Assembly: GCA_030647775.1 (NCBI GenBank)
Contig: JAUSJC010000010.1
Span: 338,646 to 402,645, forward strand
Length of the DNA stretch: 64,000 nucleotides
Direction: 5' to 3'
Origin: Candidatus Curtissbacteria bacterium
Lineage (GTDB): Bacteria > Patescibacteriota > Microgenomatia > Curtissbacterales > GWA2-41-24
Shown here: positions 14,168 to 37,025 of the stretch, piece by piece
How positions within the stretch are numbered: the stretch's first letter is position 1
Layout of the letters: every line of letters starts with the position of its first letter
The notes under the pieces: model-generated
The model's database searches: none
Seen by the model: only the letters and a program-made list of their open reading frames with translations
What the model was told of the DNA's origin: nothing
Position numbers and translations under genes: made by a program

Positions 14168-15845
14168 CGAAGTTATTATTCTCTACTAGAGTCTTATATT
14201 TACTATACATATAATTTGCAAAACCCGGATTACTCAATAATCGCTTTTTGTCAGCCGATGCAAAAATAACTGCCCCCCTCGATCTTAAATACTCAAGGTA
14301 TTCTTCCGATTTTAGTCTGTAACCGTTAACTGGCGGATTATTTTTCCCTTCTATGTCAAAACTCCAGCCATTGCGATTGGAATAATAAATGACTGTCGGG
14401 CCGGAATCCATTGATCCGATTGTTAGATCATCCTGCTTCGTTAGCCTTTGTACTTCTTTCCCTGTTTCAGTTACAAATCTAAATCTGTCGATAGGCCGAT
14501 ATGCCTTAGTAAAAATTTGCGGCAAAGCACTTATACCAATCATCAAAAATATGAACGAATATACAAACCAATTATGCCTAAAATTCTTTGCTGCTTTCAT
14601 GGTTCCTAGTGCGATAAATATTGAGGCAACCGGCAAAAAAGGCAGATTATAATATTCATGTACCATTGAATGCCTATTGAAGATGAAAAAATAAATTGCT
14701 ATGCCAAGAAGCCAAAAGTAAATAAATTTCATTTTTTTATATTTGCTCGCAGAACACCATAGACTATCTGTCCATAGATAAATGCGAGAGCGAATACATA
14801 CTTCCGAGTACCAGGAGTTTTCTGCTCGCTCATGTAAACTTGAAAGAGAATACCGAGGGTTTTTAGCCCTCGGAAGTTTATAGCCGGTAAAAAGACCAAC
14901 CACGAAAAGGACTAGGCCGATGGGAAGAATAACTTGGTTGTAATTCCATCCAAAAACAGTTGCATAATATTTGTAATCTAAAAATAAAGCAGGCCGAAAC
15001 CAATTAGAAAGGGAGAAATTTTCTTGGTTGACCAAAATGTTCGTCTTGGCTACAAAATAGGCATATTGATACCATATTAGGGACGGTAAAAATGAAATTA
15101 ATACATAAAGCAGTGAATAAGAAAATCTGTGCGCCGTTTTTTGGTGTAAAATTAACAAGAGTATGGGGATAACAGTGAAGATAAACGCCGGGATTTTTAA
15201 AAGGGAAGCAACAGAGGCAAGAAGGGCTGAAATAATAAGATAAATCAATTTCTTCTTTTCGTTCCAGATCAAAGCATAAAAAATTGATCCGAGAGATAGA
15301 GTAATCATCCATTGATCGGGCTGAAAACTTCTCGACACCAAAACGGACATGGGGGATAGGCTATAGAACACAACCGTTATCAAGGAAAGCTTCTCCCCGA
15401 TTAACTTTTTAGATATTCTATATAAGAATAAAAAGGAAATGATCCACCCTAAAACAGAAAAAAGTCTTCCGAGTGTTTCATCAACGCCACCGTTTAAGAG
15501 ATATAAAAAAGCAACAGCTGTATTTAAACCGGGGAATTCCAATATATACAAGACTTCTTTTGGTCCATAAAAATTGACCGCAGGCTGCAGGATGTTAAAT
15601 CCTCCGCGGAAAAGGTTTCTAGTAATTTCTGCTGTTTGTACCTGTCTTGACGGCTCAAATTCAAGGAGCGGAATGTTTATTCTCCATAAACGCAGAGAAA
15701 GACCTAATATTAAAATTATTGCAAGAACAACATAATCTTTATTCTGAGCGAAAAAACTCCTGAATTTATGCCGGAGATGAAGCGAATTTTGAGCGAAATT
15801 CAGAGAACTACGACCCTTAGGCCGTGGGAATCTATTTATTTTCAT
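14139..15845 (-). CDS. PMT_2/ArnT-like (GT39/GT83-type) polytopic membrane glycosyltransferase
   Basis: 'LAIILILGLSLRLWRINIPLLEFE' is the N-terminal LRL-W/Y...D/E loop typical of the family. There are 12+ TM helices and a C-terminal soluble domain. The first ~35 codons overlap repeat element copy A, so the true start is uncertain. Confidence 0.55.
   Translation of the reverse strand: MKINRFPRPKGRSSLNFAQNSLHLRHKFRSFFAQNKDYVVLAIILILGLSLRLWRINIPLLEFEPSRQVQTAEITRNLFRGGFNILQPAVNFYGPKEVLYILEFPGLNTAVAFLYLLNGGVDETLGRLFSVLGWIISFLFLYRISKKLIGEKLSLITVVFYSLSPMSVLVSRSFQPDQWMITLSLGSIFYALIWNEKKKLIYLIISALLASVASLLKIPAFIFTVIPILLLILHQKTAHRFSYSLLYVLISFLPSLIWYQYAYFVAKTNILVNQENFSLSNWFRPALFLDYKYYATVFGWNYNQVILPIGLVLFVVGLFTGYKLPRAKNPRYSLSSLHERAENSWYSEVCIRSRIYLWTDSLWCSASKYKKMKFIYFWLLGIAIYFFIFNRHSMVHEYYNLPFLPVASIFIALGTMKAAKNFRHNWFVYSFIFLMIGISALPQIFTKAYRPIDRFRFVTETGKEVQRLTKQDDLTIGSMDSGPTVIYYSNRNGWSFDIEGKNNPPVNGYRLKSEEYLEYLRSRGAVIFASADKKRLLSNPGFANYMYSKYKTLVENNNFVIFGLTSAN
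15741..15837 (+). repeat. Junction repeat element, copy A (long form)
   Basis: ATTCTGAGCGAAAAAACTCC[TGAATTTATGCC]GGAGATGAAGCGAATTTTGAGCGAAATTCAGAGAACTACGACCCTTAGGCCGTGGGAATCTATTT. About 90% identical to copy C except for a 12-bp indel. Confidence 0.8.
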
Positions 15846-17631
15846 ACGTTCTCAATATATTTATCAGTTTGTTTAGTTTCCTTACGTTGCCTTTTCCAAA
15901 GTATTCTTTAGCGAATCTTATTTTGTCCCGAGAAACAAAGTCCAGCCGCGTTTCTTTTAAAAATGCTACCAATCCGAGCTGTAAATCATTTTCTGATAAT
16001 ACGGAGAATGATCTATCAAATTTTCCAACACCGAACATGTCCGTTTTATTGTAAGGATTGAAAAATACGGTAGGCTTCCCTGATAGCAAAGAATACACAC
16101 CCGCTGTGGTATTTTCAAATATTATGACGTCTGCATCTTTAAGTGCTTCATTCAAAGAATTAAAATCGGAGAATTTGCATTTTTGAGGATATTTATTAAC
16201 TAAAGCAGTAAAATTTCTTCTATTTTGGAATGGGTGGAGACGGATAGAAATTTCAACGTTAATGTCCGAGTTTAAAAGTAAAGAAAAAAGCCTTTTTTCC
16301 CAGTAAATTGTTAACCCCGGATCAAAGTAATGGATAGTAGCGAGAAATAATATTTTAATTTTGTCAGGCTTTTGGCTTTTGGAATTAACTTCAATGTTGG
16401 TGTCAAAAGGGGATTCCCCAATCAATACCTTTTTTTTACCAAGAGGCCTTCCGTCATTCGTGTAAAAGTTTGAAAAAAAAAGTTCACTTGTCTTCTTGCT
16501 CCATAAAATATGTTTATTGCTTAGAGGTAAAGGGTAGGGGATAGGTGCAAGACTTCCTCCATGTTCAATGGATATCGTTTCTACTCCTGCCTCTTTTGCC
16601 CCGGAGATAAAAGTTAAGCATTTAGTATCAGGATCGGTAAAAGTTACTAATAAATTTATCCCGGATCCTGTTATTATTTTTCTAGCTAGAATTATATCCG
16701 CGCCGATTTCTCTGAATTCATTTCTTATTACTTGTGAAATTTTAGCCTTTATAAATTTACTTGCGAATTTATCTTCGTCAAATCTAGGGTGAGAAAATTT
16801 ATTCCAAGCATGCTCTTTTATCAGATGGGATTCTATAATTTTTGATTCTTCCCAAATCTCTTTATCGTAAAGTCTTTCTTTTTCCCAAAACTCACAAGTG
16901 AAACTTTTTAACACTTTTCTTTGAGAAAAAGTAAGTCCATATGTTAAAAAAATAACGTCCAGTCCTGATTTTTTAATGTCACTTATAAATTCCTCCATTT
17001 CTAAAAATTTTGAAGGTGGAATAAGCATTAGGATTTTCCCGTTTCTAATCTTGTTTCTCTTAAGCCCATTGAGGAATTTATAGATGTTACCGACAGATTG
17101 TCTCAACTTAAATTCTCTTCTACTATTAATTGATATTTTTCTATATTTTATATTTTTCTTTCTACTAAGAAGAAAAAAGGCATGGGGAATTAAAGTGCCG
17201 TTATTAATACTATACCCGGGGTAATCTTCCAATCCAAAAGTAATTATTTTTTTTGGTTTAAAATAGTTAATTACTTTTTCACCAAAATCATAACTTCTTT
17301 CGAAATCTTGTAAAAAAAATCCTATTCTGTCTCTTACGTATTTATAATATTCATTACCAAGTTCACTATAAACGATTTTAAAATTATCTATGAAATATTT
17401 GGCGCCGCCGCTATAACCGTCCTTTGATATGAATTTATATAAGGGATTTTTCCACCCGGGGATATTTTTTTCAAGATAAAACTCAGCTTCTAGGGAAATA
17501 GCAAGATATATTTTATTTTGAGCGAAAATCAAAGAACCGCGGCCGAAAGATCGTGGGAATCTATTGTTACCAACCAGCGAAAGAGCCGTCCTTGCTTCTT
17601 CTTCGGTGCTTACTATTATTAACGTACCCAT
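15832..17631 (-). CDS. Large GT-B-like transferase (TagF/capsule-type), candidate nonulosonic-acid transferase
   Basis: 599 aa. C-terminal half 'KIKILFLATIHYFD...RLHPFQN...IIFENTTAGVYSLLSGKPTVFF' resembles CDP-glycerol glycerophosphotransferase / capsule transferase folds. Lies immediately downstream of the NulO biosynthesis genes. N-terminus overlaps repeat copy B. Confidence 0.35.
   Translation of the reverse strand: MGTLIIVSTEEEARTALSLVGNNRFPRSFGRGSLIFAQNKIYLAISLEAEFYLEKNIPGWKNPLYKFISKDGYSGGAKYFIDNFKIVYSELGNEYYKYVRDRIGFFLQDFERSYDFGEKVINYFKPKKIITFGLEDYPGYSINNGTLIPHAFFLLSRKKNIKYRKISINSRREFKLRQSVGNIYKFLNGLKRNKIRNGKILMLIPPSKFLEMEEFISDIKKSGLDVIFLTYGLTFSQRKVLKSFTCEFWEKERLYDKEIWEESKIIESHLIKEHAWNKFSHPRFDEDKFASKFIKAKISQVIRNEFREIGADIILARKIITGSGINLLVTFTDPDTKCLTFISGAKEAGVETISIEHGGSLAPIPYPLPLSNKHILWSKKTSELFFSNFYTNDGRPLGKKKVLIGESPFDTNIEVNSKSQKPDKIKILFLATIHYFDPGLTIYWEKRLFSLLLNSDINVEISIRLHPFQNRRNFTALVNKYPQKCKFSDFNSLNEALKDADVIIFENTTAGVYSLLSGKPTVFFNPYNKTDMFGVGKFDRSFSVLSENDLQLGLVAFLKETRLDFVSRDKIRFAKEYFGKGNVRKLNKLINILRTYENK
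17516..17565 (+). repeat. Junction repeat element, copy B (short form)
   Basis: TTTTGAGCGAAAATCAAAGAACCGCGGCCGAAAGATCGTGGGAATCTATT. Confidence 0.75.
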
Positions 17632-17638
17632 CCGTGGT

Positions 17639-18199
17639 TTAAATTTTAATGCCGAAAAGGTCGCAAAAGTCTTTCTTAAGCACGCCGTATTTCAATATAT
17701 CGGCATATGACCCATGCTTGTAGAGTTGTTCTTTCAGTCGACCTTCCTCTTTCATTCCTAAGAATTTCGCCAATTTCTGCATCCCGATATTATGCTGTGA
17801 AGTTCCACAGTAGATTCTGTGCAGATTCATTTCAGAAAACCCGTGTTTCACAAGCAGTAAAGAAGCTTCCTTTGAGTAGCCTTTATTCCAGTAATCTTGC
17901 TCCCCGACTATAATGGCAAATTCTGCGTTCTTATTAGTATAGTCAATACCCTGAAGCGCGATATTCCCTATGTGAATTTCCTTCCCTTTCAAAATGATTG
18001 CCAACACTATTGCATCCCTAGTTTTTTTTGAGGCATTTATATATGCGAGCCCTTCCGCCACAGAATAAGGGAAAACATGGTGAGAATTAAATTCGCACAC
18101 TTTTTCATCATTCAACCATGAAACGTAATTGCCTTTTAAATCTTCCTCCGTTAGTCCTCTTAAATAAATATGTTCACCTTCTAAAAATACGTTTTTCAC
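17639..18199 (-). CDS. GNAT N-acetyltransferase (PseH-like candidate)
   Basis: 'FAIIVGEQDYWNKGYSKEASLLLVKHGF' and 'HRIYCGTSQHNIGMQKLAKFLGMKEEG' are GNAT motifs A/B (RimL-like). Confidence 0.65.
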   Translation of the reverse strand: MKNVFLEGEHIYLRGLTEEDLKGNYVSWLNDEKVCEFNSHHVFPYSVAEGLAYINASKKTRDAIVLAIILKGKEIHIGNIALQGIDYTNKNAEFAIIVGEQDYWNKGYSKEASLLLVKHGFSEMNLHRIYCGTSQHNIGMQKLAKFLGMKEEGRLKEQLYKHGSYADILKYGVLKKDFCDLFGIKI

Positions 18200-19503
18200 T
18201 TAAGTTCCTCTTTGTATTTCCAGACTTTTTCAAAGGCCCTAACTACGTCGTCAAGGTCGTCTCTCGTCATGGGCGGTTTAAAAAGCTCATTATTTATAAG
18301 AACATTATCATAACAACTTTCAGCAACCGGACAAATACCTTTGTCGTATTTTACTCCACTTTTGTTCCAAGGACTGTTCCATGGCCATCCCGCCGATCCA
18401 ATCGCAATCTTATTTTGAAAAAGAGGCAACAGATGGATTGGTTTTATGTAGCCTTTACCGAGTGTTACACCTTCGTCAGTCCTTTTTTCGTACGGCAGAA
18501 GTTCTGCCTTAACCGCATCTACAAAAACATCCCTGTGAACTCCCGCAATTTCCGAAGAGTACTGCAGTGGTTGGTAATAATAGCTGTGCGTACAATCCTT
18601 TCTTACTTTTCCTAATTTTATGCATGGAATATTTTTTAAACCCTGGGAAAGATATTCCACATTAGTCCGCCTTTCTTCTACAAGTGGCTTGACCTTTTTT
18701 AATTGTTCTTTGCCAATAGCAGCCGTAATTTCAGTCATTCGGAAATTAAAACCAACCATATTTACTAAAGTCTCAAAGCCGCCTCTCCCATCGATTACAG
18801 CTTCTGCATGATTCCTTATCATTCTTGCTCTTTCGGCAAATAAATCGTTATCGGTTACTATTACGCCTCCCTCTCCTGTATGGATATGTTTGTGGAAATT
18901 CAAGGAATGAATGCCTATGTCTCCAAGTGTACCGGCGTATTTCTTTCCATAGTTTGCAAAAATCGCCTGTGCAGCATCCTCAATCACAACGAGTCCACGC
19001 TCTTTAGCAAGCTTATTGATATTTTTGGAATCGTAAGGAAGACCAAAAAGGTCAACAACTATAATTGCTCGGGTGTTTTTTGTAATTCTTTCTTCAATTG
19101 ATTTGGCGGAAAGACAAAAAAAATCTTCTTCTATGTCAGCAAAAACCGGAATAGCTCCATAAAAGAGTGGAGCCGTAGCGGAGCAGCTCATAGAGTAGGG
19201 AGTTACAATTATTTCGTCGCCAGGGCTTGTGCCGATAGCCCCGACAGCGCATATTAATCCTGACGTAGCTGAATTAACTACGATTGCATGTTTTACTCCG
19301 AAATACTTTGACCATTCGGTCTCAAAAGATTTGGCCTCTTCGCCGCCATAGAATCTCGCGTGTTGGGCACCGATATATCCGGAAAGCCTGCCGGATTTGA
19401 AAACACGCAAAACTGCCTTTTCTTCCTCCGTCCCAAAATTGTTATATGCCGGAAAGTTTTTGTTCCTGATTTTCCTTCCGCCATTAATCGCTAGTTTTGC
19501 CAT
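18196..19503 (-). CDS. DegT-family PLP aminotransferase (PseC/LegC-like)
   Basis: 'VNSATSGLICAV', 'TPYSMSCSATAP', 'VIEDAAQA'. Adjacent to the other NulO genes. Confidence 0.75.
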   Translation of the reverse strand: MAKLAINGGRKIRNKNFPAYNNFGTEEEKAVLRVFKSGRLSGYIGAQHARFYGGEEAKSFETEWSKYFGVKHAIVVNSATSGLICAVGAIGTSPGDEIIVTPYSMSCSATAPLFYGAIPVFADIEEDFFCLSAKSIEERITKNTRAIIVVDLFGLPYDSKNINKLAKERGLVVIEDAAQAIFANYGKKYAGTLGDIGIHSLNFHKHIHTGEGGVIVTDNDLFAERARMIRNHAEAVIDGRGGFETLVNMVGFNFRMTEITAAIGKEQLKKVKPLVEERRTNVEYLSQGLKNIPCIKLGKVRKDCTHSYYYQPLQYSSEIAGVHRDVFVDAVKAELLPYEKRTDEGVTLGKGYIKPIHLLPLFQNKIAIGSAGWPWNSPWNKSGVKYDKGICPVAESCYDNVLINNELFKPPMTRDDLDDVVRAFEKVWKYKEELK

Positions 19504-20609
19504 TTTTGGTTTTCGATGTATTTTACAATATTTTCAATTGGGCTCCTAATATAATCAAATTTGGATAATCCAAGCGTACCGTTTAAAGCCGCTGCAAGTT
19601 CTTTCTCAAGTTCCAGCCGATTTACAACCGGTTTGATCAGCCCTTTTTTAACAAGCAAAAAAGGGCTATCTCCTCTTAAACCTATTTGCACACAGATGAC
19701 CGGCTTTTTAAGAATTATTGCTTCCAAAATAAGCATGGATGAAATTGATATCACCGCGTCACTTTGTGTGATCTGCTCCCATGAATTCGATCCTCTCACA
19801 ATTTTTATCTTCAAATTTTTACTCAAATACTGCTTTTTGATGGGTTCGTATTTTCTCCTCTTATCTTTGGGATGAAGTTTGATAATAAATTCGATATCCT
19901 TTCTGGTGGATATGCTTATTTTACTAATAATCTCAAGCAACAGCCCCGTTATTTTCAGTTCATTGTAGATTAAAAATTTATCCAAGACCGCTTTACCTTT
20001 GAAAAAATCGAAAAGAGGCTCCGAAGCAAATAACAACCTAACTTTGCTATCGCCAAATCTTTGATTTACCACCTTTTGCAAAGACTTCTTTTCAAGAAAC
20101 TCAAAATATGGCTGGCCCATTACTTCAATTAAATTCGAGGGAATACCTTCTTTTGCCATCTCTTCACTCGTCGTCTCATCCATAACAAAAATTTTAGTAG
20201 GGAAGAAAATGAGAGCTTTATTTTTTTTGTATTTCCCAATTGACCTAAGAGTATATTTTGAAAAACGGATCCCCAAATTTGTCCAATGATCGAGTATTGC
20301 AATGGAAGGTATTCCTAAAGAAGCGCTTACTCTCCAAAAATATTTTTCACTAAATTCCTCCGAATTAGTACCGGTAATCACCAAGAAAGGCTTCTTCCCG
20401 ATTAGGAATTTTTTTAAACTGGCTTCGTTAACTGGTCCTATGGATTTTGTTATATCTCGGCAGACAATACCTAATTTTTTAAAACCACGAGTAGCAAAAT
20501 CTTTTCCGTAGACTTCGACCTTGTAGTTACTTTTAGTAAGGGCCGAATATAAAGGTGCAATAGCGTTTGCGCCGCCGGTATCCCTAGCAAACAACAACAC
20601 CTTTTTCAT
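19491..20609 (-). CDS. GT-B-fold UDP-sugar hydrolase / 2-epimerase-like (PseG/NeuC-like)
   Basis: 'KLHPKDKRR' (HP motif) and 'ISISSMLILEAIILKKPVICV' resemble the WecB/NeuC C-terminal region. Position inside the NulO module. Confidence 0.45.
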   Translation of the reverse strand: MKKVLLFARDTGGANAIAPLYSALTKSNYKVEVYGKDFATRGFKKLGIVCRDITKSIGPVNEASLKKFLIGKKPFLVITGTNSEEFSEKYFWRVSASLGIPSIAILDHWTNLGIRFSKYTLRSIGKYKKNKALIFFPTKIFVMDETTSEEMAKEGIPSNLIEVMGQPYFEFLEKKSLQKVVNQRFGDSKVRLLFASEPLFDFFKGKAVLDKFLIYNELKITGLLLEIISKISISTRKDIEFIIKLHPKDKRRKYEPIKKQYLSKNLKIKIVRGSNSWEQITQSDAVISISSMLILEAIILKKPVICVQIGLRGDSPFLLVKKGLIKPVVNRLELEKELAAALNGTLGLSKFDYIRSPIENIVKYIENQKWQN

Positions 20610-21553
20610 TATTTAAACTTGAAGCAAGACTGAAGAGTTTTGTAAGCTTCCTCTCCGGTACATTTAAGCTGACTATTTCCCTTTAAAAACTCGTAAATGT
20701 TTTTAGAGGCAAATAGCATCGACTTATCTTGCGAGGTGTTGATCTCTTCCGACTTTGTTAAGTTTTTATAACCGCTAAATACCGAATTTTCTTTTATACC
20801 AAATTCTTCGATCATAAATTTGGAGTCGTCTATTTTAATCCTTCCTTTTTCAAATAACAGATCCATTTCAAATATCGTGTAGAGTCGGCAGTCAAGTGCG
20901 CAAATCGCAAAATTTGATCCGCTTTCGAGCTTTAAAATACCGGACAAGCTTGGATCTTTTACACTGTAGTCAAAAATCCTCTCATACACAGTAATGTCTA
21001 CAATTTCACCTACAAGATACCTTAGTAAATCAATCATATGGGAACCGTTATGGATAAGCCCTTTTCCATAAATGCCCGTCCCTTTTACAAATTTCCCGAA
21101 GCGCGGAATCCGCAATTTTAAAAACTCAAATTCCGGGATGTATCTGCGCGTATAATTGACAGCAATCGGGGTGCCCCTCTTTTTGTAAAGATCGAGAATT
21201 TTTTTCGCTTGAACGTCTGATGACGCAAGTGGTTTTTCTGCAAAAACTAACTTAAAATTGTAAGGTAGAAGTTCTTTGAGTACTTCAAAATGATATTCGT
21301 CATCTACGGCCTCACAAACAACGTCTATTTTATTTTTGTTAAAAGCCTCACCAATTGTTTTGAACGCCAATCCTCCCCAAATTGAACTTGCTTTCCTGGC
21401 CTTTTCAAAATCCCGGTCGACAAAACCTACAAGATTAAATCCGTTTTGAGAAAATCCGTGCGCATGTGAAAGAATATTTTTACTTTTGGGGTCATCAATG
21501 AAAGCACCGATTCTACCTGATCCAACGATTAAAACATTAAAATTCTTTGACAT
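20609..21553 (-). CDS. Gfo/Idh/MocA-family NAD(P)-dependent oxidoreductase
   Basis: N-terminal 'NVLIVGSGRIGAFI' Rossmann motif and 'EKPLASS' motif. Confidence 0.7.
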   Translation of the reverse strand: MSKNFNVLIVGSGRIGAFIDDPKSKNILSHAHGFSQNGFNLVGFVDRDFEKARKASSIWGGLAFKTIGEAFNKNKIDVVCEAVDDEYHFEVLKELLPYNFKLVFAEKPLASSDVQAKKILDLYKKRGTPIAVNYTRRYIPEFEFLKLRIPRFGKFVKGTGIYGKGLIHNGSHMIDLLRYLVGEIVDITVYERIFDYSVKDPSLSGILKLESGSNFAICALDCRLYTIFEMDLLFEKGRIKIDDSKFMIEEFGIKENSVFSGYKNLTKSEEINTSQDKSMLFASKNIYEFLKGNSQLKCTGEEAYKTLQSCFKFK

Positions 21554-21558
21554 AAATT

Positions 21559-22299: not shown

Positions 22300-22345
22300 G
22301 ACTAGGCTCATAATTATTAATATGGTAATATTACCATATTGGCAA

Positions 22346-24495: not shown

Positions 24496-24502
24496 ATTCT
24501 CT

Positions 24503-26568: not shown

Positions 26569-26601
26569 ATCTGATTGATTCTACACGAAAAACTCGAATT
26601 T

Positions 26602-27468: not shown

Positions 27469-27471
27469 TGA

Positions 27472-28110: not shown

Positions 28111-28287
28111 TCCGTTTTTCCTATGACAGCGACCTATTATTGCGATTATAATAATCCCCGAAGGGAATTATTTTTGACAGTACTTTATGTTGCATAATTC
28201 TTATTCTAAGCTTTTGATAAGCTCTCTTCAAACAATTACCCAAATATACTTTACACCTCATAAAATGTAGAATTGCAACTATAAATC

Positions 28288-28953
28288 ATGGAACCGGAAA
28301 TAACTCGTCTTTACAGGTTACGTTTTGATAAAGATCTTAAGAAGAGAAACGAAATTTGGAAAATTCTTTGCAGGGATTTTTTCCAAAAATACATAAAACC
28401 TTCCGATACCGTTTGCGATCTTGGCGCGGGGTATTGTGAATTCATAAACAACATTAAAGCAAAAATCAGAATTGCCATCGACATTAACCCGGAAACCAAA
28501 AAATTTGCAAACAAAGGACTAGCAACTTTAATTACCTCAAGTACCAATTTACCTAAAAATTTGTATAACAAAGTTGACGTCGTTTTTGCCAGTAATTTTT
28601 TTGAACATTTATCCACGAAAGAAGAATTGGCAAAAACGCTGGTGGAAATTAATAAAATATTAAAAACAGGCGGGAAAATTATTGTTCTTATGCCAAACAT
28701 CCGATATATTGGGGCGGCTTACTGGGATTTTTTGGATCACCAGCTTCCGTTAACGGAAAAAAGCATGGTTGAAGCCCTAACCTTAAATGGTTGCAGGATA
28801 ATAGAAAAAAGAAACAGATTTCTACCATATACGACAAAAAGTCGCTTACCGAAAATGGGATTTTTGGTTAGACTTTATTTAAAACTAACCCCACTGCATC
28901 TACTTTTTGGGAAGCAATCGTTAATCATTGCCCAAAAACTACCACTTAAATGA
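28288..28953 (+). CDS. Class I SAM-dependent methyltransferase
   Basis: Motif I 'VCDLGAGYCEF'. 'VDVVFASNFFEHL'. 'GGKIIVLMPN'. Confidence 0.6.
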   Translation: MEPEITRLYRLRFDKDLKKRNEIWKILCRDFFQKYIKPSDTVCDLGAGYCEFINNIKAKIRIAIDINPETKKFANKGLATLITSSTNLPKNLYNKVDVVFASNFFEHLSTKEELAKTLVEINKILKTGGKIIVLMPNIRYIGAAYWDFLDHQLPLTEKSMVEALTLNGCRIIEKRNRFLPYTTKSRLPKMGFLVRLYLKLTPLHLLFGKQSLIIAQKLPLK

Positions 28954-30716
28954 CTCAAGGATTTATTTCGAGCGAAAAAACTCCGGAGATGAAACGAATT
29001 TTGAGCGAAAATCAGAGAACCACAACCTTCAGGCTGTGGGGATCTATTTCTAAAAATAAATTGGTAATCTCTTTTATTTTTGCCATTACTGCGATCAGCT
29101 TTTTCTTAAGGTTATATCAATTAGGTAATGTTCCAAACGGGCTGTCAGCAGATGAAGCAGATATGGCATATAATGCTTTTTCTATTCTTAAAACCGGTAA
29201 GGATGTTTATGGAAGGCATCTTCCCATATTTTTTCAGTCTCTTGATGGTTTTGTCCCGGGTTTCGGGATATACGCGTCTATTCCGACAATTTACATATTT
29301 GGCTTAAACGATTTTGCTATTAGGCTTTTACCTGCCGCGATTGGCGCGCTTACGCCGCTTCTAATGTATTTTCTAGCTAAAATTCTTTATCCCAAGAAGA
29401 AATATTTACCTATAATTTGTGCAATTTTAACAACTTTTGCCCCTTGGAATATAGCTATTTCTAGGGCACTCTGGCTGTACATTGAACTTATTTTTTTCTA
29501 TATCTTATTTCTTATCATTTTTTTACTGGGTATTCAAAAAAATTTTAAATTAATTATTTTAAGTGCATTAGTGCTCGTTTTGACTCAATATATTTATCTT
29601 GCGGCAATTCTTTATCTTCCGCTAATAGTTATTACTGTCACAATTATTTATAGAAAAAACTTTTCCAAAAATTTAAAAATAAGTCTTCTGGCATTATCTT
29701 TATTAATTATTTTATCTTTACCGAGTATTGTTTACTACTTAAATCAAAGCTCAAGGGGACGATTAAACTCGATTTCGATTTTTCAGAATGATGTAACGCT
29801 TCCGATATCAATATCAGAAAAGCAACAGGATATTAAAAATAACGATAACTTTAGTGCTTTATTGCATAATCGCAGACTGGTATATTTAATCGATTCGGTA
29901 GAAAACTATTTCAAATACATAAATTTTAGTGCCCTTTTCGTTAATAGTAGTGGTATTCGGCTGTTTTATGTAAACTACGTTGGATTATTTTATCTTATTG
30001 AACTGCCTTTTTTCCTATTTGGATTCTTATATCTTATAAATGATATTAGGAAAGAGCACAATCTTCTTGTCGCAAGTTTATTTCTGATCGGGCCCATACC
30101 CGCTATATTTATACTCGGAGCCACTTTTTTTCATAGATCTATTTTATTTTTACTGGCAATTCAAATTATTTCAGCAGTCGGGATTAACAATTTTTATGAA
30201 CAAATAAAGAAAACTAAAGTTAAATATTGGTTACATATTGTTATCTTTCTTGTCCTTGTGTATATGTCAAGCATATATTTCTTTTTGCACCAGTATTTTA
30301 TCCATTCACCAAACGAGTTTACTTCTGAAGATGATAATGGGGCGTGGTTTTCTACGGTAAAAAATGCTATTCCAATAGTTAATGAAAATAAAACAAAATA
30401 CGAGAAAATAGTTTTCACTTGGTCTAAGAGCAAACTTATTCCCCCCGTTTACTTTCTTTTTTACAACAAAGTTGATCCTTCTGTAATGCAAAAAAAGGCT
30501 TCCGGTTGGACGAACGAACCGCCCTCTTATAAACAGATCTACAATCAAATTGACAATATTGAATTTAGGTCAATTAACTGGCTTCAAGACAAAAATCTCA
30601 AAAGCGCTCTTTTTATTGGGTACCCGAGCGATTTTCCGGAGGACGTAAAAAACGTAGTTGCAAAAACGTATCTGCCAAACGGCGAGGTTCATTTTCTTGT
30701 TGTTAAAAATCCCTAA
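28950..30716 (+). CDS. PMT_2/ArnT-like (GT83/GT39-type) membrane glycosyltransferase
   Basis: 'FFLRLYQLGNVPNGLSADEADMAYNAFS' is a textbook first-loop motif. 12+ TM helices plus a C-terminal periplasmic domain. The first ~30 codons overlap repeat copy C, so the real start may be downstream. Confidence 0.6.
   Translation: MTQGFISSEKTPEMKRILSENQRTTTFRLWGSISKNKLVISFIFAITAISFFLRLYQLGNVPNGLSADEADMAYNAFSILKTGKDVYGRHLPIFFQSLDGFVPGFGIYASIPTIYIFGLNDFAIRLLPAAIGALTPLLMYFLAKILYPKKKYLPIICAILTTFAPWNIAISRALWLYIELIFFYILFLIIFLLGIQKNFKLIILSALVLVLTQYIYLAAILYLPLIVITVTIIYRKNFSKNLKISLLALSLLIILSLPSIVYYLNQSSRGRLNSISIFQNDVTLPISISEKQQDIKNNDNFSALLHNRRLVYLIDSVENYFKYINFSALFVNSSGIRLFYVNYVGLFYLIELPFFLFGFLYLINDIRKEHNLLVASLFLIGPIPAIFILGATFFHRSILFLLAIQIISAVGINNFYEQIKKTKVKYWLHIVIFLVLVYMSSIYFFLHQYFIHSPNEFTSEDDNGAWFSTVKNAIPIVNENKTKYEKIVFTWSKSKLIPPVYFLFYNKVDPSVMQKKASGWTNEPPSYKQIYNQIDNIEFRSINWLQDKNLKSALFIGYPSDFPEDVKNVVAKTYLPNGEVHFLVVKNP
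28965..29049 (+). repeat. Junction repeat element, copy C (long form)
   Basis: TTTCGAGCGAAAAAACTCCGGAGATGAAACGAATTTTGAGCGAAAATCAGAGAACCACAACCTTCAGGCTGTGGGGATCTATTT. Confidence 0.8.
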
Positions 30717-30827
30717 CAAAATACCGGGTTTCCCTTGCGCTTATCCGGCCGTACACTTATTCATAATCTCTTGTAGTATCATTGATCTTGCTCGTGTTTA
30801 CAATTTAAATAGCACCTAAATTATAAG

Positions 30828-31715
30828 ATGAAAATAAATTCTTCCAGAAAGTGTCCAAACTGCAGTTCGGCGGAAAAAACCACATTATTATATCCGTCCG
30901 TAAACAAGTTTAAAATTTTCATTTGTCATAACTGTCGAAACGGTTATACTTACCCGGTTCCGAGTAATATTTCCAAATACTACCATTCGAACTACTGGAT
31001 AACTCCCGGCATATTAGGAAAGATAAAAAATCTAGTATTTAAGGTATTTCAAGCAAGAAGGGATAAATGGTTGAAAAAATATTTGATTAAAGGGCGTATT
31101 TTGGAAATAGGTTCAGGTGAAGGCAATTTCGCCAACGCATTAAAAGGGAATTATGAAATTACTTGTATAGAACATCCTGGTGCAAAAATAAATAACAGGA
31201 AAGTATTGAAAGTCGACTTCTTGAAATGGAAAACACACAAAAAATTTGATGGTGTATTTTTTTGGGAGAGTTTAGAGCATGTTCCCACACCCGTTGAATA
31301 TTTAAAAAAATCATTTAATTTATTAACAGATAATGGGTTTTTATTTATAGAATTACCCCGGTTTGACTGTTTAGAATCACGTATTTTTAAAAAACATTGG
31401 TTTCACCTTGATCCACCTAGACACTTAGTCCATATCACAAGTTCCGGTTTGGACGGCTTGTTTTCACGGTCTGGTTTTATGAAAATCGAGAAAAAAGATG
31501 TTTTTGCCGTTGAATACGTACTTTGGGGTTTTCTTGAAAGCTTCTTGGATATAATCGGAATAAAATCTACTGACTATTTCAAAAAAAGTAAGTTTCCGTT
31601 CTTTTTATTATTCCTTTTTCCTATTCTGGCGTTTGCCACAGTAGCAGAATTATTTTTCTTTCTCATAAAGGAGTCGCCAATAAATTTTGTTGTAGCAAGG
31701 AAGCGTAATGGTTAA
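30828..31715 (+). CDS. Zinc-ribbon-fused class I SAM methyltransferase with C-terminal TM helix
   Basis: 'CPNCSS...ICHNCRNGY' zinc ribbon. Motif I 'ILEIGSGEGNFANAL'. C-terminal hydrophobic 'FPFFLLFLFPILAFATVAELFFFLI'. Paralogue of 9009..9890. Confidence 0.6.
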   Translation: MKINSSRKCPNCSSAEKTTLLYPSVNKFKIFICHNCRNGYTYPVPSNISKYYHSNYWITPGILGKIKNLVFKVFQARRDKWLKKYLIKGRILEIGSGEGNFANALKGNYEITCIEHPGAKINNRKVLKVDFLKWKTHKKFDGVFFWESLEHVPTPVEYLKKSFNLLTDNGFLFIELPRFDCLESRIFKKHWFHLDPPRHLVHITSSGLDGLFSRSGFMKIEKKDVFAVEYVLWGFLESFLDIIGIKSTDYFKKSKFPFFLLFLFPILAFATVAELFFFLIKESPINFVVARKRNG

Positions 31716-32502
31716 GAAAAAGAAAGTCATTGCAATATTAATAGCTTACAATGCCGAGGGAACTCTTAAAGAATTTTATAAGAGTCTTCCGAAACATTTG
31801 TTTGACGAAATTCTTCTTTTCGATGATGCATCACAAGATGACACTTCGAAAATTTCACAAAGTCTTGGCATTTTGACATATAAAAATAAATTTAATCTAG
31901 GATATGGAGGAAATCTTAAAAAGGCATTAGTTACCGCTCTCTCAAAAGGCGCAGATATAATTGTGGATATACACCCGGATAATGAATACAAATCGACAGC
32001 AATCGCAGGTGCACTGGAAGAAGTTCAAAAAGGGTCAGAACTGGTTGTAGGTAACCGTTTCTCGAGCCTAAGTTACATAGCCCAAAAAAGCGGAATGTTT
32101 ATCTGGAAAATAATTCCAATTCTTCTGCTTAACACAATTTCCGGATTTTTCTTAAAAATAAATATAAATGATTTTCATCAAGGGTTTAGGGTGTATACAA
32201 AATCCTTACTAAAAAAAATAAACTTCGAAGAAAATTCAAACAACTATATTTTCAGCTTCGAATTAATAACCCAAGCCCAGATGGTAAATGCTGTCATTTC
32301 TGAAGTACCAGTCGAAACATCGTATGTCGGGAAAAAGCGGGGAGCCGGGTTTACGAGCAGTGTTAATTACACTTTAAGCACGTTTAAGGTCATTTTTATG
32401 TATTTAACGGCAGGCTTAGGAGCAAAATACAAAATATTCAAAAGGCCGGATCAAAACCTAAATCACCGGATAACTAAACTCACAAAACAATATAATTTGT
32501 GA
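31708..32502 (+). CDS. GT2 polyprenyl-phosphate sugar synthase-like (DPM1/GtrB/ArnC-type) with C-terminal TM
   Basis: 'VIAILIAYNAEGTL...ILLFDDASQDDT'. C-terminal hydrophobic tail. Confidence 0.65.
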   Translation: MVKKKKVIAILIAYNAEGTLKEFYKSLPKHLFDEILLFDDASQDDTSKISQSLGILTYKNKFNLGYGGNLKKALVTALSKGADIIVDIHPDNEYKSTAIAGALEEVQKGSELVVGNRFSSLSYIAQKSGMFIWKIIPILLLNTISGFFLKININDFHQGFRVYTKSLLKKINFEENSNNYIFSFELITQAQMVNAVISEVPVETSYVGKKRGAGFTSSVNYTLSTFKVIFMYLTAGLGAKYKIFKRPDQNLNHRITKLTKQYNL

Positions 32503-32557
32503 AAAGAGATGAAAAATAGGGTGGTAACAAAACACCAGCCAGAAATTTGTGAAATGC

Positions 32558-33256
32558 CTACACAAAAAATCTTATCTTGATTATATAAAACAATATAAAG
32601 ACCGCTCTCTTGACGAAATAAGAGGCCGTTTTCGCTTGAGTTTTTTTCTTCTTAGCTACAAAATGAACAGGAATCTCTATAAATCTCGTTTTATTTTTGA
32701 CAATAAGAAGCAGCCATTCGGTCAAAAACATCTCGCTGTCGCACTTAAAATATTTTTGCACCCCTTTCCACGCCTTTCTGTTTGTAAGTCTTAATGTACA
32801 TCCGACATCAGTAAGCGGTGAACTCAAAAAAAGAACACTTGTAATTTTTCCGAATAAATCATCTACCAGTCGTCTGGCAAAGGTCATTCCGGAGCTTTTA
32901 GCTATCAGTGGCACATGTGTGCGGCTTCCAAATACGACATCGAAGTCATCGCTATAAGAGAGAAGTTTAAGTATATCTCTCCCGATAAATGTCCCATCTG
33001 CCTCAGTGATAATAACCAAATCCGCCCCGGTTTTGTTCACCCCTTCCCTAATGGCAATGCCCAGACCGGGTTTTGATTGTTTAACATATCTTGCTCTTGT
33101 TCGCGCTAGTGAATCTCCAAGCCTTGAATCTGCTTCCTCCCCAACCACAATAACCTCATCAACATAGCCGGTTGAATCGTAATCCTGGACGACTGACAAT
33201 GCCAAACTATTATTCGCAATCGGAATTATTACTGCAACTGTTTTTTTGCCCCACAT
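32558..33256 (-). CDS. GT2 family glycosyltransferase (DPM1-like)
   Basis: 'VAVIIPIANNSL...VDEVIVVGEEADS', 'ITEADGTF' (DXD-like) and a C-terminal hydrophobic tail. Confidence 0.5.
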   Translation of the reverse strand: MWGKKTVAVIIPIANNSLALSVVQDYDSTGYVDEVIVVGEEADSRLGDSLARTRARYVKQSKPGLGIAIREGVNKTGADLVIITEADGTFIGRDILKLLSYSDDFDVVFGSRTHVPLIAKSSGMTFARRLVDDLFGKITSVLFLSSPLTDVGCTLRLTNRKAWKGVQKYFKCDSEMFLTEWLLLIVKNKTRFIEIPVHFVAKKKKTQAKTASYFVKRAVFILFYIIKIRFFV

Positions 33257-33265
33257 AAATATAGT

Positions 33266-34513
33266 CTACACGATTTTTATTTTAGGAATGGGAATTATAA
33301 ACTTTCCGCCATTTTTTTTAAACTCTCGTTCTTTCTCAATAATTTCGTCAGCAAAATTCCAGGCGAGAATGAGTATATAATCTGGTCTGTCTTTTGCTAT
33401 TCTACTTTCCCCATAAACCGGGATATGAACACCGGGGGTAAATAACCCTTGTTTATATGGAGTGGAATCGACAATGTAGTCTAAAATGTTAGTGCCAATA
33501 CCAAAATAATTAGTCAAAACATTGCCCTTTGCGGCAGCGCCATACCCAATAATTTTTTTTCTCTTTTTCTTCAAATCGGTCAACAGTTCCATAAGCTCAA
33601 CTTTTAAATTTTCAATTCTTCTGGCAAAATCGATCAAAGCCTTTGTTGAATATAAGCCTTGGTTTTCTTCAACAGAAAGCAAATATTTCACGGTATTTAA
33701 GGCCTTATTGCTTTTACGGCTTTTTTTTCTGTGAATCAAACGGATAGAACCGCCATGTATCAAAAGTCGCTGGACACCTATTATCTCAAAACCATATAGG
33801 CTGATCAATTTAATCCAAGGCTTGAGTGAAAAATATGACAGATGTTCATGATAAATAGTATCGAATTCATTTTTTTTAATAAGGTCTACCAAATATGGAA
33901 ATTCTGTAACAAATACACCGTCTTTTGCCAGCAAACTCGCTACACCCTCAAAGACCTGATGCAGATTATCAATATGGGCAATTACGTTAGTCGCGGTTAT
34001 TACATCTGCTTTCCCATATTTTTTCACTATTTGTTTCGCGTTTCGAGCGTTAAAAAATTTTACTTCCGTAGGTATTCCTTTCATCTCTGCAAGCTTCGCT
34101 AAATTTTTTGCAGGATCAATTCCAAGAACTTTAACTTCAAAATTTTTGAAAAAGGTCAATAGGCTTCCATCATTAGATCCAATATCTACTACCAGTGAAG
34201 ATTTATTCAATTTGAACTCCTTGTATATTTGAAAAGCAAGATTGCCAAAGTTATTCATCATAACCTTGGCCATAGAAGGGATGTAAACATAGTTTTTGAA
34301 CATCAGTGCGGGGTTAACAACAATAGAAAGTTGTACCAAACAACAGTCTTCACAAAATAAACATGCAAGTTCAAATTTCTGCTCGGAAGTTTTTAATTTA
34401 TCTCTTTCTAAGAAGCCATTCGGTATCGGCATAGACCCTAAATCGAGAAATTTAAAAAGCCGCCTGCTATGACAAATTCTGCATTTTTCCACATCTCTAT
34501 AAGCTTTTTTCAT
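33266..34513 (-). CDS. Zinc-binding SAM-dependent sugar C-methyltransferase-like enzyme
   Basis: N-term 'CRICHSRRL...CEDCCLVQL' zinc-binding domain. Motif I 'VVDIGSNDGSL'. Long C-terminal domain, about 415 aa. Confidence 0.6.
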   Translation of the reverse strand: MKKAYRDVEKCRICHSRRLFKFLDLGSMPIPNGFLERDKLKTSEQKFELACLFCEDCCLVQLSIVVNPALMFKNYVYIPSMAKVMMNNFGNLAFQIYKEFKLNKSSLVVDIGSNDGSLLTFFKNFEVKVLGIDPAKNLAKLAEMKGIPTEVKFFNARNAKQIVKKYGKADVITATNVIAHIDNLHQVFEGVASLLAKDGVFVTEFPYLVDLIKKNEFDTIYHEHLSYFSLKPWIKLISLYGFEIIGVQRLLIHGGSIRLIHRKKSRKSNKALNTVKYLLSVEENQGLYSTKALIDFARRIENLKVELMELLTDLKKKRKKIIGYGAAAKGNVLTNYFGIGTNILDYIVDSTPYKQGLFTPGVHIPVYGESRIAKDRPDYILILAWNFADEIIEKEREFKKNGGKFIIPIPKIKIV

Positions 34514-34583
34514 AGAGTTAATAATAGGGCTATCGGAGATTATTAATCAAGTTCAAGATTATGAGTCGAATTGGTGAAGACTT

Positions 34584-34668
34584 ATTCTGAGCGAAAATCA
34601 GAGAACCACGGCCTTAGTTCGCAAGCTCACGTTTTTGCTTCGCAAAAAGAGGCCGTGGGAATCTATTT
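34584..34668 (+). repeat. Junction repeat element, copy D (short form with 37-bp hairpin insertion)
   Basis: ATTCTGAGCGAAAATCAGAGAACCACGGCC-TTAG-[TTCGCAAGCTCACGTTTTTGCTTCGCAAAAAGA]-GGCCGTGGGAATCTATTT. Outer perfect 8-bp inverted repeat CCACGGCC/GGCCGTGG. Inner perfect hairpin TTTTTGC-TTC-GCAAAAA. Confidence 0.8.
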
Positions 34669-36321
34669 AAACTTTAAAATATCAAAATATGGCCCGGTAC
34701 GTTCTAGGCTATACATTGAAAACGTCTCCCCATTATCATAGCTCTCAAAATTAGAAGCGGCTTCGTATAATGCTTCTGGTAGTATTCCACGATATGCAAG
34801 CCCGCTTTTCAAAGGGCTAAAGGTGGCTACCTTTTTCAGCAAATTAGGGTTTTGTGAATAAATACTGTCTTTCGGGTAGTAGTAGTAGTCTATGACATAA
34901 GAAATAGGATAATCGCCTGTTGCGTTGTTAAGTTTTTCCATTTTCGTTTTGCCGCCCGCGGGTGCCGTGTAGACAATGTTTCTCATATTAGGCAAGTAGT
35001 TACCGCTAAGCACAGTTGCTTCCTGATAATAATTAGGCTGGAATTTTTGTCCATTTAAAATTGCTTCTTTTGAAGGAACGAAAGTTTGATATCTTCCTCC
35101 TAAATAAGCAATAGGTTCTCGCGGGTTAATATTTCGAGCGATCCAATCTCTTGCCTGAATGAAAGTCGGTTCTTTCAAAAAAATATAATTCCAGTAAAAA
35201 GAATTAAAACCTGCAACAAAAAAAATTACCGTCAGGGTAAAAAATTTCAAAGGCCAGCTATTTTCCAATAAGCGCCATTTAAGGCCATTCCAAGTGGCAA
35301 AAGCCGCAAAAGGGATGAGTAGAAAAATTGCAATATTAAAATAATGCAAAACGGGGTAAAGAAAAAACAATGCAAAAACAAAATTAGCAATGAGGAAATA
35401 AAATACGAGCCTTGCTTGTTTGCTAAAGGTTCTAAAACCAAAGACGCTAAGTGTTCCAAATAATAATATTACAAAATCTGTCTTTGCAAAACTTCTGATG
35501 ATAAAAAACAAGTTGGGATTGGTCAAATTATTGATAAGTTTCGCCAATATACCGCTTTCATGTCTGAATAACGCGCCAATAAAGGAATCGGGTCGTAGTT
35601 TTAAAAGAGCGTCCTCAAATCCTGAATGTAAGACTAATCTGCTTAAAATCAAAACAGAAAATGCACTTAGCAAAAGACCGATTATAAATTGGCGTAAATA
35701 CTTTTTTTCAAAGAAGAGAAATATCAGGGGGAAGCTGAAAATCCCAATTTGTAGAAAACCATAAGAAACAATTGCACAAATAAATGCCCATAAAAATTGT
35801 CTCTTTAAACAAAAATATAAAGCCAACAGCAAAAAAAACATTGCTTCGGGCCATGGTCTTGCAAAATGAGACATGTGAACCAAATTGAATGAAAAAGAGG
35901 CAAGCAGTGCAGCCAGCATAGCGATCCGTTTATTCTCGAATAAAAGCTTTGTCAAGTGATAAATTAAAAGAATTGTTAGAGTACCAAAGAATGCCGAGTA
36001 AAATCTCGGTATAAATAAAAAGTAACCCTCATGTGTAATTACAAATTGCCTAAACTCATCAATATTATGGATATTACCCATTGTCTTCATATATAGATAA
36101 GAAAAGCCAATAAAAGGAATTTGGATGTAGGCACTAAGAGGCGTGTAATAAGATTGAGACTTTATCGTTTTTTGTGCAATCATCGTATAAGCTGATATTT
36201 GCGTAATTGCCTCATCGTTAGAGACATAAAGCGATGGGGAACCAAAATTTAAACCCAAAAAACGTAGTCCTACACCAACCAAGACAATTAAAATTAAAAA
36301 TTTACTTTTGAATAACGACAT
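34663..36321 (-). CDS. PMT_2/ArnT-like polytopic membrane glycosyltransferase
   Basis: 'LIVLVGVGLRFLGLNFGSPSLYVSNDEA' first-loop motif. Multiple TM helices. Stop codon supplied by repeat copy D. Confidence 0.55.
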   Translation of the reverse strand: MSLFKSKFLILIVLVGVGLRFLGLNFGSPSLYVSNDEAITQISAYTMIAQKTIKSQSYYTPLSAYIQIPFIGFSYLYMKTMGNIHNIDEFRQFVITHEGYFLFIPRFYSAFFGTLTILLIYHLTKLLFENKRIAMLAALLASFSFNLVHMSHFARPWPEAMFFLLLALYFCLKRQFLWAFICAIVSYGFLQIGIFSFPLIFLFFEKKYLRQFIIGLLLSAFSVLILSRLVLHSGFEDALLKLRPDSFIGALFRHESGILAKLINNLTNPNLFFIIRSFAKTDFVILLFGTLSVFGFRTFSKQARLVFYFLIANFVFALFFLYPVLHYFNIAIFLLIPFAAFATWNGLKWRLLENSWPLKFFTLTVIFFVAGFNSFYWNYIFLKEPTFIQARDWIARNINPREPIAYLGGRYQTFVPSKEAILNGQKFQPNYYQEATVLSGNYLPNMRNIVYTAPAGGKTKMEKLNNATGDYPISYVIDYYYYPKDSIYSQNPNLLKKVATFSPLKSGLAYRGILPEALYEAASNFESYDNGETFSMYSLERTGPYFDILKFK

Positions 36322-36389
36322 TTAACAATTAATTTATCATTCACCCTAGAGTATACATTTAAAAGTTCCTGTGCTACAATTTTTTTTTA

Positions 36390-37025
36390 ATGAAAACGAT
36401 ACAAAAATTTGATGAGAAATTTATCGAGTTCAACAAGAGTTATTATAAAGATATAGAAGATTACGATTGGGTGGAGGTAACCGACAAATTAAAGGGCTTG
36501 GAATCTTTTTTCCATAAACTTAGGGAATACTGGGTCCTAAGACTTATTAATAAGAACCTTCGAGGTACCGTAATTTTAGACGCTGGTTGCGGAACCGGCC
36601 TAATATTAAGACACCTGCCTCATGGTTCTTATGGGGTCGATATTAACCCCAGAAACATAAAAAGGGCAAAAGTTCACGCACCGAAAGCGCAAATCGTCAA
36701 AGCCGATATTGAAAAACTTCCGTTTAAAGATAATTTTTTTTCCACAATAGTTTGCACGGAAGTCATAGAACACCAGCCGGATCCCAATCCGACCATCAAA
36801 GAATTTATAAGGGTGCTTCAAAAAGGGGGAGTTTTAATTGGCAGTGTTCCAAGCGATTCCCCGATATGGTTTTTAAGGTTCCTCTCCAGTACTTGTCCGC
36901 GAGGCGAACCTTTTCATAAAAATTTTAAATGTAAAGAATTAAAAAGTTTGTTTAGGGAATTTAAAATCCTTCACCTTGCCAGGTCTGTTTTGGGGATGAG
37001 CTACTTCTTCGTTCTAGAAAAATAA
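36390..37025 (+). CDS. Class I SAM-dependent methyltransferase
   Basis: Motif I 'ILDAGCGTGLILRHL'. 'TIVCTEVIEH'. Confidence 0.6.
   Translation: MKTIQKFDEKFIEFNKSYYKDIEDYDWVEVTDKLKGLESFFHKLREYWVLRLINKNLRGTVILDAGCGTGLILRHLPHGSYGVDINPRNIKRAKVHAPKAQIVKADIEKLPFKDNFFSTIVCTEVIEHQPDPNPTIKEFIRVLQKGGVLIGSVPSDSPIWFLRFLSSTCPRGEPFHKNFKCKELKSLFREFKILHLARSVLGMSYFFVLEK

Follow-up and report, generated by a model that had tools for sequence, protein, structure and literature searches.

Short in-frame hairpin repeats in a surface-glycan region of a Curtissbacteria genome: probable insertions of a mobile element resembling Rickettsia palindromic elements

Why does one short DNA repeat occur four times, always on the same strand, in a region of surface-glycan genes? 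The region is a 64,000-nt stretch from a Candidatus Curtissbacteria bacterium (GenBank assembly GCA_030647775.1, contig JAUSJC010000010.1, positions 338,646 to 402,645), here called the window; positions below count from its first base unless a locus elsewhere, prefixed L, is named. An earlier note on the window had described the repeat as a conserved element at gene junctions, lying at the 5′ ends of membrane glycosyltransferase genes, and had offered an attenuator or terminator, a protein-binding or recombination site, and a small mobile insertion as explanations. We find that the four copies, A to D, are very probably insertions of a short, non-autonomous mobile DNA element; this grading applies to the general explanation, a mobile in-frame repeat. 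The repeat is best explained as a new family of selfish element like the Rickettsia palindromic elements (RPE); a novel system that regulates or recombines glycosyltransferase genes is not what it represents.

The left core of the element (25 nt) matches the window four times at three or fewer mismatches, where 0.00 matches are expected from shuffled sequences, and the right core (17 nt) four times, where 0.14 are expected. All four core matches are on one strand; the chance of a single orientation among four copies is 1/8. A covariance model of the element, run on the window, found no copies beyond A–D. The four same-strand copies are thus confirmed with counts far above those of the shuffles, and the coordinates first given for them were right to within 4 nt.

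The window variants measure 93, 48, 81 and 81 bp. Copy A (15741..15833, minus strand) is the full-length form and lies in frame after codon 4 of a PMT_2 membrane glycosyltransferase gene (14139..15845, minus strand), to which it contributes 31 residues (RFPRPKGRSSLNFAQNSLHLRHKFRSFFAQN). Its first hairpin, HPa, is at ~15808-15827, a decayed second hairpin, HPc, is at ~15757-15776, and the flanking AAT is at 15834-15836; its covariance-model score is 104.9 bits. Copy B (17515..17562, minus strand) is the short form, made up of HPa and the tail TTCGCTCA. It is in frame in a LIC12162-like gene (15832..17631, minus strand) between the codons for Asn22 (AAT) and Lys (AAA), and occupies codons 23-38. 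This gene takes the last two bases of its TAG stop from the start of copy A. Copy C (28965..29045, minus strand; 89 bits) has lost the top 12 nt of HPc and lies in frame after codon 6 of a PMT-family membrane glycosyltransferase gene (28950..30716, plus strand) whose start ATG overlaps the upstream stop (ATGA); it is antisense to its host, in whose frame it reads SSEKTPEMKRILSENQRTTTFRLWGSI. Copy D (34584..34664, minus strand) is the short form enlarged by 33 nt in the loop of HPa. It is intergenic, placed in the stop codon of a PMT gene (34663-36321), that is, at the 3′ end of that gene, and is followed after 70 nt by a C-methyltransferase gene (33266-34513).

Much of the anatomy proposed in the earlier note holds. 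The GC stem CCACGGCC/GGCCGTGG is perfect in D, with its long loop, and imperfect in A, B and C; A and C have the extra half of the element in common and are separated by a 12-nt indel; and both A and D provide the AG of the upstream gene's TAG stop. The proposed gene context fares less well. Copies A and C do fall in the N-terminal codons of PMT-family genes, but the host of B is a soluble LIC12162-like protein and D is at the 3′ end of a PMT gene. No PMT match was found in the B host protein, which is named ‘MAG: hypothetical protein Q7S45_04265 [Candidatus Curtissbacteria bacterium]’ (MAG, metagenome-assembled genome). Nor does every copy immediately follow an upstream stop codon: B is ~74 nt past it. 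Orientation relative to the host does set C, which is opposite to its host, apart from A and B, which are co-oriented with theirs. Copies elsewhere follow no orientation rule.

Insertion is seen where a related locus lacks the element. The contig L002 has the gene order of the window, and its orthologue of the B host is 82% identical in protein sequence. The 16 residues of copy B (NRFPRSFGRGSLIFAQ) are missing from five homologues, namely this orthologue and four more distant ones. At the DNA level, ...GACAAT|AAAATATATCTC in L002 corresponds to ...AACAAT[48 nt]AAAATATATCTT in the window; the empty site is GACAAT|AAAATA with a single AATA, and this one clean empty/filled pair has a 3-4-nt ambiguity (AATA) at the target. 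The L002 sequence at the position of copy A is ATGAAACTTAAG|AAAGAT (MKLKKD...), compared with ATGAAAATAAAT[93 nt]AAAGAT in the window. The covariance model found no element across all 12.9 kb of L002. In the window itself, excising the 81 nt of copy C gives back a typical PMT N-terminus, MTQGFI|SKNKLVISFIF, and the stop codon that is TAG with copy D becomes TAA once the element is excised, which would make the insertion a TAA-to-TAG change.

Outside the window, at least 17 further copies occur in other Curtissbacteria and Patescibacteria assemblies, and 21 copies of the family (family 1 in what follows) are known at distinct loci altogether. A search with the translated element found metagenome contigs with the 93-nt form. 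Scanning a degenerate 19-nt pattern over 185,579 species genomes gave 39 loci, 12 of them real and ~27 chance matches in unrelated phyla, a number of the order predicted from the specificity of the pattern. The real loci are spread over four Curtissbacteria MAGs, one Saccharimonadales MAG, one ‘Patescibacteria group’ MAG and L024, a contig of 5 kb whose bin is labelled Gammaproteobacteria but which itself resembles Patescibacteria sequence. The most copy-rich genome is that of the Curtissbacteria RIFCSPLOWO2_02_FULL_40_11, with at least five copies. To the family as a whole the covariance model added two decayed copies. Because only ~15-25 proteins with the encoded peptide were returned by profile searches of 5.8 billion and 1.84 billion proteins, the family is narrow. 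A viral contig scan and BLAST searches of phages and plasmids did not find the element, and the limited set of literature that we searched held no report of such elements in Patescibacteria or the candidate phyla radiation (CPR). A strict two-part DNA pattern was also tried; it gave no match in genome contigs and one in metagenomes, on a high-GC contig without the stem, which we judged to be chance.

Subfamilies are specific to genomes: variants are in common between L009 and L010, between L030 and L042, and between L024 and L035. Such sequence patterns would reflect recent activity. Two unrelated loci in differently labelled genomes, L024 (3623-3745) and L035 (327-450), are enlarged by the same ~30 nt within the second-hairpin loop, and therefore the enlarged variant itself appears to have spread.

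The genes that host the copies are mutually unrelated, which contradicts the expectation that the element would always be found at junctions of glycosylation genes. One copy is in the interdomain linker of a DUF4147/MOFRL glycerate-kinase-type enzyme, one within the domain of a PNPOx-like protein, one antisense in a DsbD_TM gene and one within the HPFxxGN motif of a Fic protein; other hosts are VanW, an aspartyl protease, an SLT-like protein and several PMT-type transferases. The nearness of copies A–D to glycan genes is itself uninformative, because the whole 64-kb window consists of glycan-biosynthesis genes. These observations bear on the idea that the copies are sites for a site-specific recombinase, by which glycosylation genes would undergo phase variation, deletion or cassette exchange. 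In its favour, the copies flank surface-glycan genes as direct repeats, all in one orientation, and each has an imperfect palindrome. However, no recombinase or integrase genes were found in the window, the gene order of L002 is unchanged without the sites, copies elsewhere are single and in unrelated housekeeping genes, and the alignment has no attC-type GTTRRRY core. We regard recombination sites as highly improbable.

The copies within genes keep the reading frame. Ten of the 21 are in long open reading frames (ORFs), and all ten are multiples of three in length (48, 81, 93 or 123 nt); the remainder are intergenic, among them the four whose lengths are 89, 92, 124 and 131 nt, none of which falls in a long ORF. 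The canonical element is 93 nt (10 of the 21 copies), and its sense frame, s0, is open in every one of these ten, with one antisense frame open in eight. By their reading frames the coding copies are read through, and the host protein would gain 16-41 residues. For the window genes it had been left undecided whether the element is translated as a cytoplasmic tail or the genes use non-canonical starts; the translated tail is favoured, with the original ATG codons at 15845 and 28950 upstream of the inserts and the frame open through them. In an AlphaFold model of the B host (pTM 0.80) the insert is a low-pLDDT loop at residues 21-37, between a helix (10-18) and a strand (40-44), and is thus predicted to be tolerated as a loop in an otherwise confident model. 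The element explains odd N-terminal extensions and internal low-complexity segments of annotated Curtissbacteria proteins, and we advise masking it in homology and structure work.

The Fic case deserves separate mention. At L006 (498-590) a Fic/Doc toxin gene, itself downstream of a MazE-like antitoxin gene, has its catalytic HPFxxGN motif interrupted by a copy. The Fic ORF stops 11 codons past the insert, and the toxin is probably inactivated, judging from its reading frame.

An open frame might also be expected if the element encoded a conserved peptide module, such as an N-terminal tail or signal, on which selection acts as protein, and the sense frame is indeed open in every canonical copy, with the peptide NRFPRPKGRGSLIFAQ... 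recurring in many predicted proteins. Yet the variable columns of the alignment fall evenly on codon positions 1, 2 and 3 (13, 12 and 14), and therefore it is the DNA and its structure that are conserved, not the peptide. The same DNA is moreover read in the opposite sense in copy C, in L011 and in several database proteins, intergenic and frame-broken copies exist, and the insert is predicted to be disordered. A peptide module is hardly credible, and the early description of a DNA-level element, as distinct from a conserved peptide or 5′-untranslated-region motif, stands. Of the natures first offered for it, the small mobile insertion is strongly supported by the empty sites, the dispersal to unrelated genes and the maintenance of an open frame.

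On the window minus strand the canonical sequence is AGATTCC-(CCACGGCC TAAA GGCCGTGG)-TTCTCTGATCTTCGCTCAAGATTCGCTTCAT-(CTCCGGCAT GA ATGCCGGAG)-TTTTTTCGCTCAGAAT, with the hairpins in parentheses; it starts with AGATTCC and a hairpin and terminates in TTTTCGCTCAGAAT. The 48-nt form is represented by copy B and L018, and by copy D apart from its loop insert; it matches what a deletion between two TTCGCTCA direct repeats would leave. Extra sequence is found in hairpin loops or in the spacer (D, L024/L035 and L017), and other copies have deletions at the hairpin tops. Terminal inverted repeats are absent: the ends, AGATTCCCAC... and ...CGCTCAGAAT, are non-complementary in any register.

What is conserved in the two subterminal GC-rich hairpins is their pairing, not their sequence. 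Among 13 aligned sequences, 91% of the cells at paired positions are standard pairs. In 18 cells both sides have changed, as in CCACTGCC/GGCAGTGG, CCACGGTC/GACCGTGG, CCACGGGAT/ATCCCGTGG and CCCCGACTT/AAGTCGGGG. A covariation score as high as the observed one was reached in 0 of 500 shuffles, and in slid controls the paired share is 26-48%. As single-stranded DNA, either strand folds with z-scores of -3.9 to -5.6. Wobble pairs (~8 G.U versus 7 A.C) do not single out a functional strand. Several other structures were considered and set aside. A third helix, GATCTT/AAGATC, and a short TCTGA/TCAGA stem are weakly supported, one pair being unpaired in six of the 13 sequences; hammerhead, K-turn and bulge-helix-bulge motifs, examined by eye, do not fit at their core nucleotides. 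Rfam 15 gave no window match at the gathering score and nothing but noise with an E-value threshold; the best E-value on a canonical copy was 2.5, far below threshold.

A rival reading is a host regulatory signal, in RNA or DNA, that is placed between genes as an intrinsic terminator or intercistronic attenuator and is conserved for its function and not for mobility. The second hairpin of the canonical element (9 bp, GC-rich) is followed by T6 and looks like a terminator on the window minus strand, and copy D is between two co-directional genes. Against this, A keeps that hairpin in decayed form and C in truncated form, B and D lack it, a terminator scan flags none of the four window copies, and no Rfam family matches. 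Three of the four are moreover within coding sequence, copies at large are mid-gene, N-terminal or intergenic and in either orientation relative to their hosts, and the orthologous operon in L002 does without any. The gene-junction framing thus gives way, for attenuators and terminators as for recombination sites, and we consider a regulatory signal very unlikely.

The PMT_2 gene that hosts copy A contains a second insert (14739..14879, minus strand), 141 nt long and adding 47 residues in frame, which is missing from the L002 orthologue and whose hairpin was flagged in a hairpin/terminator scan of the window. It belongs to a second, related family (family 2), with two further copies in a Curtissbacteria MAG at L018 (~5428-5580) and L011 (~949-1098). 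The termini of the window copy are TAT|AAACTTCC-GC hairpin ... GCAAATAT|AAA, and those of the family, (A/T)AT|AAACTTCC-GC hairpin ... TTTTCGCGAAGCGAAAAT|AAA, resemble those of family 1. No terminal inverted repeats were found in family 2 in any register. The resemblance of the termini suggests that the two families form a superfamily with one mobilising machinery in common.

The flanks of the 21 family-1 copies read A19 A21 T21 | element | A21 A20 A18 (the subscript-like numbers are counts of copies), and therefore the target is AAT|AAA; on the plus strand it is read as TTTATT|, again conserved. The element's own end is AAT, and AAT (ATA in the other register) stands at both junctions. On the plus strand the distances from hairpin to end are 13 nt and 9 nt.

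The element integrates at AAT|AAA, and we propose that it would be mobilised in trans by an enzyme recognising its folded hairpins in single-stranded DNA, plausibly a HUH/Y1 transposase of the IS200/IS605 or RAYT type. Because its length is a multiple of three and its sense frame is always open (the antisense one usually), an insertion into a gene would be translated through and the gene not destroyed, and the added residues would lie in loops, linkers or N-termini. An effect on termination or regulation, where there is one, would be a by-product of insertion. Given that the repeat is mobile, we put the HUH route at somewhat short of an even chance.

A candidate enzyme of this kind was met by chance in RIFCSPLOWO2_02_FULL_40_11, as the first ORF scanned there: a Y1_Tnp/RAYT-like gene (L009, 394-1002) 6.7 kb from a copy of the element. 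The protein has a HUH motif, MPNHFHLF, and the tail YIHLNPV...RYSSY; it scores 47 bits against Pfam Y1_Tnp (cutoff 23) and 50 bits against NCBIfam REP_Tyr_transpos, under the cutoff of 80. The repeats flanking the gene are at 346-360 and 1018-1032, and a tRNA-like sequence then follows the gene; the locus may be a minimal IS200-type insertion sequence.

The same mobile element could instead be moved by a double-strand transposase, of the DDE type or another, that duplicates a 3-4-bp target (ATA or AATA), which would make the repeat a strict miniature inverted-repeat transposable element (MITE). ATA is at both junctions of every copy in both families, and the single AATA of the empty B site points the same way. 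But both families lack terminal inverted repeats, to which DDE transposases bind; what is conserved is a set of hairpins, kept by covariation; and beyond the repeated triplet the target is conserved on one side only. We hold such a duplication-making enzyme to be rather unlikely.

Several points weigh against a mobile in-frame repeat moved by the HUH route, some against the route and some against the wider reading. The AAT or ATA at both junctions fits an ordinary 3-4-bp target-site duplication equally well or better, and the covariation of 5′ flank with 3′ end in the window copy of family 2 (TAT...TAT) speaks for a duplication, which IS200/IS605 insertion does not produce. No replication-strand bias of orientation is seen, the GC skew of the element strand being positive at eight loci and negative at eight, in what is a weak test on 8-kb pieces. 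No transposase genes were found in the 64-kb window, and no mobilising enzyme is linked to the element. The L009 Y1 gene is flanked by ~35-nt direct repeats (TAAGGACGGACCCTT...) unlike the element, and among the locus pieces searched, as opposed to whole genomes, no Y1 (HUH) gene has flanking hairpins that match it. Empty sites are at hand for A and B only, and C and D would be insertions by analogy with these. Translation of the inserts, finally, is deduced from reading frames.

More tentatively, families 1 and 2 might be an undescribed, Patescibacteria-specific hairpin superfamily without terminal inverted repeats, whose multiple-of-three length and open frame evolved to colonise coding sequence in ultra-compact genomes, and which is moved by a domesticated RAYT-like HUH enzyme or by an undescribed mechanism. 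If true, this possibility would provide a tractable second system for the long-unsolved spread of RPE-type ‘protein-coding palindromes’, and cell-surface glycosylation enzymes would have in these elements a source of inserted peptides.

The window as a whole (1-64000) is one very large surface-glycan biosynthesis region. It encodes GT2/GT4 transferases, at least four PMT/PMT_2-type membrane transferases, many S-adenosylmethionine methyltransferases, DegT aminotransferases, epimerases, an ABC-2 exporter, AlgX-like acyltransferases and several uncharacterised large ORFs (no Pfam hit, DUF6798, DUF2142); it contains no mobile-element genes. Another in-frame N-terminal oddity is a 21-nt tandem repeat (60831-60930; 4.8 copies with 92% matches) that is read as the heptad ISRAFLR. 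It lies close to the N-terminus of a 558-residue ORF (60789-62465), directly ahead of its first hydrophobic segment; the ORF probably encodes a membrane protein. A 105-nt inverted repeat, 71% complementary, has one arm (11943-12047) in the ORF 11633-12826 and the other (19041-19145) in a DegT-type aminotransferase gene (18196-19503); it may be paralogous coding sequence and not a structural element.

Among known systems, bacterial MITEs (Correia, ERIC, RUP, Nezha and others) are like the element in being small, non-coding, multi-copy, AT-target-preferring and able to alter neighbouring genes, and the canonical copies, with a terminator-like hairpin and T-run, recall SPRITE. Unlike classical MITEs, the element is without the defining terminal inverted repeats, and about half of its copies are inside ORFs with the frame kept.

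The ends of IS200/IS605 elements and the REP/RAYT system offer a closer structural parallel, in that terminal inverted repeats are absent and subterminal hairpins at both ends are conserved as structure. A sequence-specific target on one side is another feature in common with IS200/IS605, and a Y1/RAYT-like gene is present in the element-rich Curtissbacteria genome. IS608 cleaves 19 nt ahead of its left hairpin and 10 nt past its right one (PMC3201880), compared with the 13 and 9 nt found here. The differences are that no Y1 transposase with matching ends was found in the locus pieces searched, that the two hairpins differ from each other, that the triplet shared by the two junctions could be a genuine duplication of the target, something the IS200/IS605 family does not make, and that strand bias is not seen, though the test is weak. 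Unlike REP sequences, the element has no GTAG-type head and its copies are often intragenic.

The closest functional analogue, by description, would be the RPE, repeats of 100-150 bp that are abundant in intergenic and coding sequence, often in frame, with lineage-specific proliferation (PMC1779305, PMC10969869). Both are short interspersed repeats with stable hairpins, between and within the genes of a reduced genome; in both, in-frame insertion adds a peptide to the host protein and subfamilies proliferate by lineage; and neither has been linked to a mobilising enzyme. The element differs in its length (93 nt, with 48-nt derivatives, versus 100-150 bp), in its sharply defined AAT|AAA target, and in having two distinct hairpins where an RPE has one long palindrome. 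Its host phylum, Patescibacteria, is unrelated and no relationship in sequence is expected; we claim a likeness of description and not membership by sequence. Experiments on how the element is mobilised are made feasible by its defined target, its two covarying hairpins and the presence of Y1/RAYT-like genes. The repeats should not be mistaken for motifs that regulate glycosylation operons. The phenomenon of in-frame ‘selfish DNA in genes’, familiar chiefly from Rickettsia, would occur also in unrelated, equally reduced CPR bacteria, as a second, phylogenetically remote case of protein-coding hairpin repeats in a reduced genome.

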